A program made the position numbers and the translations under genes. Shown here piece by piece: positions 53,476-55,472 of a stretch of 64,000 nucleotides of DNA. The notes below the pieces were generated by a model. That model was not told where the DNA came from and did no database searches. It saw only the letters and a list, made by a program, of their open reading frames with translations. This stretch comes from Naegleria gruberi (taxonomy: Eukaryota): NCBI GenBank assembly GCA_000004985.1, contig GG738852.1; one strand, written 5' to 3'. Numbering within the stretch: position 1 is the first letter of the stretch; each line of letters begins with the position of its first letter.

Positions 53476-55472
53476 TTAAAATTTATAATAATTCATGATT
53501 AACATAAATTGATTCAAGTAAAACTTGGAATCAATGTAAACAACTTGGCATCTAGCATTGATATCTTTCCAATCAACGTTTAAATTGGAAGATTTCACTC
53601 TATTCAATTTTCTGAATTGACATACTTGGTGATAATCATTTGTAACAATCCACACTTTTCCAAATTTAACTGTATCTTTTGTATGTGATTGAATACATCC
53701 TATGTATAATTTTCCTTCTTGTTTAAACATTAAGTATTGATTTGGAGCAATTGCTTTAAACCATTGTTTTGATTTCTTTCGTAACCAAGGATATTTAGCA
53801 TTAAGACTGACATGTAACTTTTCAAATGCTGCACCCCGCTTTTCAACATCCTTATGATTCGATCCATCATTAAACTTTTTAAAAAGTTTGTGTTTCAATT
53901 CGAATAATAAAGCCCAAAAGTATCTAGGACTTCCCCATTCTTGACAATCTTCAAATAAATGAGTTACCCAATGGAAATTAACATTATGACATTTGTTTGG
54001 ATATAATTCAACATAATGTTCTCTGAATTGGAGGAAAATAGATTTGGATTTTTCAATAGAAAGAATTGTTACCTCATTTCTTAATAACATACTCGTCCAT
54101 GCAATATGTTCTACCCAACAAACAACATGTCTAGTTCTTTTTTCTTGTGAAATATGTTTCAATTCCTTATTTGAATAAATTAACTTGTAAATTATTGGAA
54201 TACTATAAAAACCAAATTCTAAAAATTCGTCAGCTGAACAATTCAAATAATTTGATGCTCTCATTCTAATTGATTCTCCAGAACTTAAATAAAACTCATC
54301 TATAATATCCTGAAAATCAGAAAATAATCTTGGGTATGAAAAATATTCTATTAATGCAGTCAAATGTCTTCTTAATTCACCTTGAACAAACACATGCATA
54401 AAGTCAACTGTTGAATTCTTAAATACGTCATGATTTCTTAGCTTATACAATGGGTTATCTTGTTTTTCAAGTGTAACACCATTTTTTTTCATTTGAGTGA
54501 GCTTTCTTTGTACAGTATTGTAATCAAATTTTGAATCAATTAATTCAATTTCTTGTTTTGATAATAATTTAAACCCTTTTCTTTCCTTTTTAGGTGTTGT
54601 TTCAATACTTTCATGAATTGAAACAGCTTCATCTACAGTTCTAATGCTAAATGTATGTTCTAAAACTGGTTCATCTTCCATATTATCAGTTTCTTGATTT
54701 TCTTCATCTTGATCATCTTCTTTTCCTGTTTCTGGATTGAAATAATTACATTCTTCATCAATATCATTTGGATTGTGCGTTTGGAGATCAGTTTCAACTT
54801 GCAATTCTTGTTCTGTTTCCGTTTCATGTTCTTTACAGGGCTTTGGTATAAATTGTTTCAAATTTAAAGACGGATTCTTGAAACAGAACTCATTGTATGA
54901 ATCAATTAATTCATCTGGAGTTGAGCTGTACATATTTTTTGGACAATGACATCTGGAGCAAAGATATTGTTCCATGAATAAAGTAAACCATCTTTGAACT
55001 GAATCCCAAATCCAAGGACCTAATACGTATTGAAGAGATATTTCTTTTTGTAAACCTGAATGTTTCACAATAAATGTTTTCCCTTCAATTTCATTATATT
55101 CATTAACAAACATTTCCAACATTTTAAATAAACCCTTAATATTTCTACATTTCCCAAGTAATGAAATGGATTCCATTGAGCTTNNNNNNNNNNNNNNNNN
55201 NNNNNNNNNNNNNNNNNNNNNNNNNNNNNNNNNGAAAAAGACTTTGAACAAAAGGGGCATATTAAGTTGGTAAATGAATCAAAATTTTTACATTCTTGAT
55301 TTTTACACCTAACTTTAATTGCCCTATGAAAATGAGATTTTTTGTTACTTGAACTACAAATTTTGACATCAGTTGATGATTTCACATAATTATTACAACT
55401 AGAACAATACAGTTTTGCTTTTCGAGGGTCAACCCTGTGTGAAAACAATATTTTCGCTTGTGGAATTTTCAT
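53476..55472 (-). mobile_element. TNP2-like (CACTA/En-Spm superfamily; Transposase_21 + DUF4218-type) DNA transposase gene with an N-terminal transposon-associated Cys cluster. Intronless and interrupted by a 50-nt assembly gap (55184..55233). No terminal inverted repeats were identified.
   Basis: The N-terminal ORF (55472..55234) has ..CSSCNNY..C..H..H..C.NQEC...LICPFCSKSF (compare the CPCxKC motif of the TNP2 transposon-associated domain). The downstream ORF (55183..53476) has ..STVDFMHVFVQGELRRHL.. (the Transposase_21 ID-x-MH block, as in Antirrhinum Tam1 TNP2 SSIDVMHVTKNLCVNLL) and ..VNFHWVTHLFEDCQEWGSPRYFWALLFELKHKLFKKF.. (DUF4218-like; Tam1 FFNIMTHLLVHLVKEISILGPVFLHNMFPFERYMGVLKKY). The domain order is the same as in plant TNP2. 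Confidence 0.55.
55184..55233. other. Assembly gap (50 N) inside the transposase-like ORF
   Basis: A run of n characters. Flanking sequence is coding on the minus strand on both sides. Confidence 0.95.

Follow-up and report, generated by a model that had tools for sequence, protein, structure and literature searches.

The window analysed here is a stretch of 64,000 nucleotides from contig GG738852.1 of Naegleria gruberi, and our subject is a minus-strand gene at 53476-55472, which an earlier note made from the sequence alone had described as a CACTA/En-Spm-type (TNP2-like) DNA transposase. The gene is split by an assembly gap into two open reading frames (ORFs), called the N-part and the C-part below, and this ORF pair and all the motifs that the note had quoted from it (VDFMH, NFHWVTH and GSPRYFWALLFELKHKLFKKF) are present. 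In the NCBI annotation the gene is NAEGRDRAFT_64044, a "predicted protein" whose model comprises only 485 amino acids (aa) and is identical to the last 485 codons of the C-part. The features of the gene are listed here, with alignments given to P0101, a distant relative that carries the Pfam domain Transposase_21.

55236..55472, minus strand: N-part ORF, 79 codons from the ATG at 55472, Cys-rich, ending ...CKNQECKNFDSFTNLICPFCSKSF at the gap.
55184..55233: assembly gap of 50 N, separating the N-part from the C-part.
53476..55183, minus strand: C-part ORF, 568 codons (53479-55182) and a stop codon (53476-53478), opening SSMESISLLG...; its predicted domains are the remainder of an RNase H-like catalytic core, a zinc-binding insertion, a helical domain with the catalytic Glu and a C-terminal beta-barrel.
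55003..55005, minus strand: codon for D60 of the C-part (WIWDSVQR), the putative second catalytic Asp (Asp2); its aligned counterpart in P0101 is the D of ACDVPAARK.
54949..54960, minus strand: C-x2-C motif CSRC (C75, C78), first half of a putative CCHH zinc module.
54658..54855, minus strand: acidic, low-complexity in-frame insertion, aa 110-175, predicted to be disordered.
54394..54408, minus strand: VDFMH motif with a family-invariant His, H263 (54394-54396); aligns with IDPMH of P0101.
53899..53973, minus strand: H-x3-H (H404 and H408 in NFHWVTH, 53959-53973) and putative catalytic Glu, a DUF4218-like block.
53515..53736, minus strand: C-terminal all-beta domain, aa 483-556, predicted to form a small Tudor/Sm/SH3-like barrel.

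At the edge of the gap the N-part reads ...NLICPFCSKSF, also ...TNLICPFCSKSF, within an enclosing minus-strand ORF at 55065..55472. The C-part is enclosed by a minus-strand ORF at 53476..55260, of which 568 codons are real sequence past the gap. In DNA of ~29% G+C, a chance origin of this 568-codon open frame is excluded. The Glu of the last block, E428 (53899-53901), lies in FWALLFELKHK (GSPRYFWALLFELKHKLFKKF), and the whole H-x3-H/Glu block aligns with PNMHLHAH...FWLFSFERYN of P0101, inside the Pfam DUF4218 region of that protein (residues 516-597). In base composition the transposase gene (53479-55472) has the lowest G+C content among the 24 window ORFs of at least 300 aa (0.288, and 0.20 at third codon positions, GC3); the other 23 range from 0.32 to 0.37 in G+C and from 0.25 to 0.38 in GC3.

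A word-indexed protein search returned the window gene and a single N. gruberi paralogue, P0002 (645 aa, 35-39% identity), and a profile of 18 sequences used in this kind of search still returned few proteins (2-4). P0002 reaches further toward the N-terminus, showing ...IVIMYYIDEFRKHRTGTDKTAGLYFTLLNFNRSFLTSNMESISLLG in a segment that the gap cuts off in the window. Relatives were recovered by an exhaustive HMMER search in which a two-sequence profile was compared with 1.84 billion representative proteins. This search found 154 relatives at E<=1e-3, 45 at E<=1e-10 and 10 at E<=1e-30, and all 150 relatives among the matches listed formed one BLAST-connected component. Their sources, as determined by cluster look-ups, are N. 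lovaniensis, N. fowleri (a fragment), Willaertia magna and many environmental contigs of 3-6 kb; a pattern scan of metagenomes yielded 339 pattern matches with no relative among them. One 686-aa family member, P0030 (MFN3590146.1), is deposited as part of a Spirosomataceae bacterium metagenome-assembled genome on a 3.6-kb contig. This contig is most likely eukaryotic (amoebal) and mis-binned into the bacterial genome.

Full-length relatives are 830-930 aa long and start with zinc fingers of the form CxxC...CPxC...H...H, and it is there that the N-part aligns. The earlier note had likened the N-terminal Cys cluster to a transposase-associated domain; the cluster is present and ends CPFCSKSF as described, but it aligns with these C2H2-type fingers (CPxC...H...H) and not with that domain. 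The stretch TNLICPFCSKSF of the N-part lines up with residues 54-65 (TYFTCPFCKDCF) of an 870-aa transposase from N. lovaniensis described below, a correspondence that is positional only and not significant (E 0.28).

Searches with hmmscan against Pfam-A, run with both ORF parts and P0002, gave no match at E<=10 to Transposase_21 (PF02992), DUF4218 (PF13960), DUF4216 or the transposase-associated domain (PF13963), the four models with which the earlier note had proposed to check its claim. A scan of both ORF parts against NCBIfam returned nothing, and a profile search of PDB sequences gave no match at E<=10. None of the 18 close family members matches Transposase_21, a model reached only by distant relatives. 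DUF4218 is matched by two of the 18 with a best E value of only 0.014, the window protein being without a match, and neither the window protein nor its close family has a direct Pfam match to Plavaka or DUF1258. Weak matches to zf-Di19 and zf-C2H2 occur among the relatives. Reading the failed check as a refutation of transposase identity would be the wrong conclusion because deeper profile homology, the conservation of key residues and the mobility of the family, all set out below, point the other way.

Homology to described transposases was found at the level of profiles. Among the 107 weakest matches of the HMMER search, Transposase_21 was detected in seven (best E value 2.9e-17), DUF4218 in seven, Plavaka in two and DUF1258 in three, and intermediate relatives showed sub-threshold matches to the same four models. 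P0101 matches Transposase_21 at 63 bits against a cutoff of 28.6. Comparison of the 18-sequence family alignment with P0101 by hhalign gave a probability of 99.65% and an E value of 4.1e-25 over 420 columns, extending from the first catalytic Asp (Asp1) to the Glu. The paired segments (family/P0101) are YYDDFRK/NVDFFQPYK, LNFxR...NIF/MNLPRADRFKKENIL, D.PQR/DVPAARK, a C-x2-C in both, VDxFHV/IDPMHN, PNFHxxxH/PNMHLHAH and FEHKH/FERYN. The family profile also matches a thrips protein annotated with PF02992 and PF06869 at an E value of 4.9e-8, and this match and the hhalign result indicate homology over the whole core.

Wherever they are covered, eight positions of the family (Asp1, Asp2, Cys, Cys, His, His, His and Glu) show no variation, and the column of D60 is accordingly invariant in all of the family members covering it. 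The window protein has seven of the eight residues (D60, C75, C78, H263, H404, H408 and E428), the eighth, Asp1, falling in the gap. A C(2)C and an H(3-4)H placed between the second Asp and the Glu are the signature of the EnSpm-Mirage-Chapaev-Transib-Plavaka (CMCT) clade (PMC12730594). The window protein carries this signature as D60, C75-x2-C78, H404-x3-H408 and E428, and the first Asp is found in all relatives.

An AlphaFold2 model of the 568 window residues, built on a 48-sequence alignment, had a mean predicted local distance difference test score (pLDDT) of 83.6 and a predicted template modelling score (pTM) of 0.82. Disorder in the model is confined to the acidic insertion, with pLDDT <50 at residues 110-168 and 170-175; this insertion is unique to the window copy, being missing from P0002 and all other relatives. 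The model of P0002, in which the core is complete, reached a pLDDT of 89.3 and a pTM of 0.88; D124 is located on its RNase H-like strands, which end at D212. The predicted fold is of the RAG1/Transib type, and the models show a DDE transposase fold with a RAG1-type zinc module. Solved structures of RAG1, ProtoRAG RAG1L and Transib (4wwx, 6dbi, 6b40 and 6pqn) have the same CCHH module between Asp2 and Glu, at a sequence identity of only 8-13%. The zinc site of RAG1 is a comparable Cys/His module located between these two residues, and the distance from the last His to the Glu, 20 residues in the window protein, is similar in RAG1. Taken together, the profile-profile match to P0101, the predicted RAG1/Transib-like fold and the zinc motifs uphold the earlier identification of the gene as a homologue of TNP2-type DDE transposases with its blocks in the order described. 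An affiliation with the Kyakuja-Dileera-Zisupton (KDZ) group was considered and set aside, as every Pfam link among the relatives leads to one of four models (Transposase_21, DUF4218, Plavaka and DUF1258) and the fold agrees with that of RAG1.

Mobility of the family can be observed directly in N. lovaniensis (GCA_003324165.2), where one protein, P0160, is encoded identically on six contigs. The six loci (L004-L009) have wholly different neighbour genes and share a common block of 4391 bp with sharp edges (6328-10718), the copies being 99.66-99.95% identical. The block ends in perfect 12-bp terminal inverted repeats (TIRs), CCTAGGAGCAGA...TCTGCTCCTAGG, and among the fetched loci this TIR was found only at the twelve element ends. 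A direct 2-bp target site duplication (TSD) flanks six of six copies (AT, AA, TT, TT, AA and TT), and a 3-bp reading of the TSD fails for L004 and L005, the loci checked. The element carries one uninterrupted 870-aa ORF with zinc fingers, Asp1 (LIYVDDFVKFR), LESISLLG, Asp2, CSRC, IDFFH, PNFHAGCH and FWTLLYELKH, in which identity to the window protein is 29% (E 3e-43). Six near-identical copies, TIRs, TSDs and an intact ORF establish this 4391-bp element as a recently active cut-and-paste transposon. Its proteins are annotated by NCBI as "hypothetical protein" (C9374_012422 and others), with a gene model truncated to 742 aa. Short antisense ORFs of 83 and 111 aa, either a second gene or noise, lie in the 1.3-kb interval between the left TIR and the transposase ATG (L004, 6778-7618, minus strand); in L006 and L007 the annotation has a gene of 187 aa in this antisense region.

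Judged by its sequence, the window gene is a distant member of the transposase family of this element. The two share the eight invariant positions (seven of them visible in the window), the N-terminal CPFC finger and a C-terminal LNQF...N(Y/F)xK tail. They differ in that the N. lovaniensis element is multi-copy and near-identical with defined TIRs and TSDs, while the window copy is single in the window, shares no termini with the element, contains the acidic insertion and is interrupted by the gap. We put at roughly 75% the probability that the gene at 53476-55472 is a DDE transposase of a heterolobosean CMCT family, that the window copy is an old, low-copy resident, either autonomous or immobilised, and that the family forms a deep branch of the CACTA/Mirage/Chapaev-Transib-RAG1 (CMCT) group for which no model existed before. 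It is unlikely that the window copy is a conserved host gene.

In the mechanism that we envisage for the family, the N-terminal C2H2-type zinc fingers probably bind the element ends, and the RNase H-like core would supply a catalytic triad of Asp1 (in the gap in the window copy), Asp2 (D60) and Glu (E428). The predicted Cys-x2-Cys/His-x3-His zinc module would be inserted between Asp2 and Glu as in RAG1. The DDE site would nick and transfer the ends with a 2-bp stagger, and the C-terminal beta-barrel may help in DNA or chromatin targeting. The window protein would be catalytically complete if the absent 0.95 kb is concealed by the gap, and a complete window copy would be expected to act likewise on its own ends.

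The relationship to the CACTA/En-Spm elements known from plants, fungi and animals is one of superfamily and not of family. The blocks follow the same order, namely Asp1 (D-F/G-F), LN..R...NI, Asp2 (D.P.), C-x2-C, D.MH, H-x3-H and W...FE....K. CACTA/En-Spm elements have CACTA ends and 3-bp TSDs, whereas the mobile relative here, the one family member with definable ends, has CCTAGG... ends and 2-bp TSDs; they have an N-terminal transposase-associated domain, whereas the present family has C2H2-type fingers. The family also differs from them in its C-terminal beta-barrel, and a second gene of the TNP1/TnpA type was not found, the N. lovaniensis element consisting of one long ORF, unlike CACTA/En-Spm. 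The assignment in the earlier note was thus right as to superfamily and wrong as to family, termini and N-terminal domain, and the mobility and copy number that it had suggested for the window copy are unproven.

Comparison with other members of the clade gives a similarly mixed picture. CMCT elements have TSDs of 2-5 bp, which the 2-bp TSD of the N. lovaniensis relative fits, and usually CA..TG ends, unlike the CC..GG ends of this relative. RAG1 systems have a RAG2-like partner gene, a nonamer-binding domain and a RING domain, all unlike the family here, and RAG1/Transib elements make 5-bp TSDs at ends resembling recombination signal sequences (CACAGTG), in contrast to the 2-bp TSDs of the N. 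lovaniensis relative and its unrelated TIRs. Mirage elements also make 2-bp TSDs. The same length has been described for PlavakaA (PMC12730594), like that of the N. lovaniensis relative. A further likeness to Mirage and PlavakaA is seen in the Pfam matches to DUF1258 and Plavaka among distant relatives of the window protein, but the ends of those elements are TGT..ACA or CA..TG and those of the N. lovaniensis relative CCTAGG.

The earlier note had expected CACTA...TAGTG termini around the window gene. None are present in the flanks (53151-53478 and 55473-55616), and the ends of the mobile relative are of the different type given above. No N. lovaniensis TIR was found near the window gene; elsewhere in the window there are three matches with two mismatches, against 2.1 expected by chance. 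A single pair of sites in the flanks forms a candidate inverted repeat:

53221..53231, plus strand: left arm, ATGTTAACTTA, readable as an AT target duplication followed by the 9-bp TIR GTTAACTTA.
55579..55589, plus strand: right arm, TAAGTTAACAT, lying 28 bp 5' of the start codon (55617) of the neighbouring gene.

This perfect 11-bp repeat has a rough chance expectation of ~0.05 between the two flanks and was found post hoc, and matches of 11 of 12 positions were obtained in 36 of 100 shuffles. Read with an AT duplication, it would agree with the N. lovaniensis element, whose target duplications are likewise 2-bp W-W. As an element terminus the repeat is not established and serves as a lead only.

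The nearest homologue in N. lovaniensis (L001, PYSW02000058.1, 8702-10924) is 40-44% identical, non-syntenic and set among unrelated neighbours. Two frameshifts, near 9460 and 9920, break it up into three annotated genes (C9374_012350-52), and it is either a pseudogene or affected by assembly indels. A perfect 12-bp inverted repeat, TGTACAATTACA (8643-8654 / 11124-11135), brackets this copy, with ~0.6 expected by chance; TIR searches of the metagenome and Logan contigs L002 and L003 and around L001 gave inverted repeats at chance level only. The homologues retrieved from N. lovaniensis, N. fowleri and Willaertia include no orthologue with host-gene-like conservation. Gene order offers no further help: the peroxin-5 gene (PEX5) near the transposase gene encodes a protein 65% identical between N. 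gruberi and N. lovaniensis, but no neighbour gene is common to the surroundings of PEX5 in N. gruberi, N. lovaniensis and Willaertia magna, and because gene order is not conserved there, synteny cannot decide between a transposon and a host gene.

Several observations weigh against an intact, mobile transposase gene at this locus. There is no second copy elsewhere in the 64-kb window and proteome searches give only the one annotated N. gruberi paralogue, P0002, at 35-39% identity. The intergenic flanks are short (325 bp and 144 bp), and no convincing TIR or TSD was found in them. Pfam and NCBIfam thresholds are missed by the window protein and by all of its close relatives. The first catalytic Asp is hidden in the window copy, and were the real gap small, ~310 aa would be missing and the copy would be dead. 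Moreover, a long intact ORF, retention of all the visible catalytic residues and tight packing between host genes are also what would be expected of a domesticated gene. Domestication, in which the transposase has become a host gene with a cellular role such as that of a RAG1-like nuclease or a DNA- or chromatin-binding factor, would account for a lone copy in the window 325 bp and 144 bp from host genes, for the want of demonstrable TIRs and for an intact 568-codon ORF that has kept its seven visible catalytic and zinc residues despite 29-39% identity to every relative; it would also fit the second intact and equally divergent paralogue in N. gruberi and the lineage-specific acidic insertion. 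We nevertheless regard it as unlikely. A comparably conserved orthologue was not found in N. lovaniensis, N. fowleri or Willaertia, where the nearest homologue is the non-syntenic, frameshifted copy at 40-44%, the base composition is the most extreme of the window genes, and members of the family are demonstrably mobile in the sister species; synteny is uninformative on this point, the PEX5 neighbourhood not being conserved between species. In a bolder form, the window gene and P0002 would both be domesticated, catalytically competent RAG1-like nucleases, an independent RAG-like domestication in an early-branching eukaryote, possibly acting on host DNA, from a source lineage that, on the predicted models, could be structurally nearer to the RAG1 core than the other solved transposases in these searches. 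This form is a long shot, a shade less probable than domestication in general. A less radical version is that the family may be a new superfamily-level CMCT lineage in Discoba, marked by a 2-bp TSD, CCTAGG ends, C2H2 fingers and a C-terminal Tudor-like barrel; if true, a Discoba lineage would place the origin of the RAG1/Transib-type core closer to the root of the eukaryotes.

The assembly gap bears on whether the window copy is alive. By comparison with P0002, P0004 and the 870-aa ORF of L004, which served as rulers, the segment expected between CPFCSKSF and SSMESISLLG is ~305-320 aa (~0.95 kb), and the first catalytic Asp (in a YxDDFxKxR motif) is expected within it. A second gap of 50 N, at 58360-58409, lies inside PEX5, where, aligned with the N. 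lovaniensis orthologue, the window passes from 58356 directly to 58417 while the orthologue moves on by ~3 bp, and for this reason 50 N is taken to be a placeholder length. The earlier note had read the gap in the transposase gene as a sign of a multi-copy repeat, a reading left unsupported by the other gap, which hides ~3 bp in a single-copy gene, and by the single divergent annotated paralogue. The N-part and the C-part differ in reading frame, but with a placeholder of 50 N between them this difference is uninformative as to the true frame. The same facts can be turned into a case for an internally deleted, dead relic with a short real gap, in which ~0.95 kb with the zinc-finger linker and the first Asp has been lost: both window gaps are exactly 50 N, the one in PEX5 stands for ~3 bp, the two ORF parts are out of frame across the placeholder, and the NCBI model covers 485 aa only. 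We consider such a relic doubtful, though it deserves more weight than domestication. It requires the break in the assembly to coincide exactly with the deletion junction, for which an unassembled core is the simpler explanation; both ORFs are open to the gap edges in DNA of ~29% G+C, and the 568-codon part is undecayed and keeps every invariant residue. Because of that coincidence and the open ORFs, an unassembled core within an intact gene is favoured over an internal deletion, fairly clearly if short of decisively. Least probable by far is a strict-sense CACTA/En-Spm element, which would be present in many copies and have CACTA...TAGTG ends, 3-bp TSDs and a transposase-associated domain. 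The TNP2 motif order and the profile-level homology to Transposase_21/DUF4218 proteins agree with it, but the four Pfam models fail even at E<=10, the flanks hold no CACTA/TAGTG ends, the mobile relative ends in CCTAGGAGCAGA with 2-bp TSDs, and there is no sign of high copy number.

On the reading of the gene as a heterolobosean CMCT transposase, we classify its family as a distinct, new lineage within the CACTA/Transib/RAG1 group; taken by itself, the window locus is an unremarkable transposase gene of low copy number. Transposons are reportedly very scarce in Naegleria, where they make up 0.13-0.28% of the genome (bioRxiv 10.64898/2026.06.24.734286). Members of the present family lie outside every Pfam model, and their genes carry no annotation beyond "predicted" or "hypothetical". 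A literature search found no paper on such elements in Naegleria, although cataloguing in Repbase could still exist. The live N. lovaniensis element is now defined by its ends, target duplication and transposase, and the lineage provides a handle for annotating heterolobosean genomes and extends the evolutionary history of RAG1-type recombinases by a branch in Discoba. A compact, single-ORF transposon might also serve as a genetic tool for Naegleria species, those related to the pathogen N. fowleri included.

The transposase gene is bordered by plus-strand genes on both sides. The gene at 55617-56500, putatively INO80C-like according to the earlier note, contains several short introns with GTAAGT/GTATGT donors; the PEX5 gene, which encodes a TPR protein, lies further along, past the gene that starts at 55617. 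On the other side, at 51378-53150, is an intronless gene of 590 codons that the note had called MACPF-like, a label borne out by a Pfam MACPF match of 34 bits (E 4e-8, cutoff 21.5). The product of this gene has a signal-peptide-like N-terminus and is perforin-like, and the gene abuts the 3' flank of the transposase gene.

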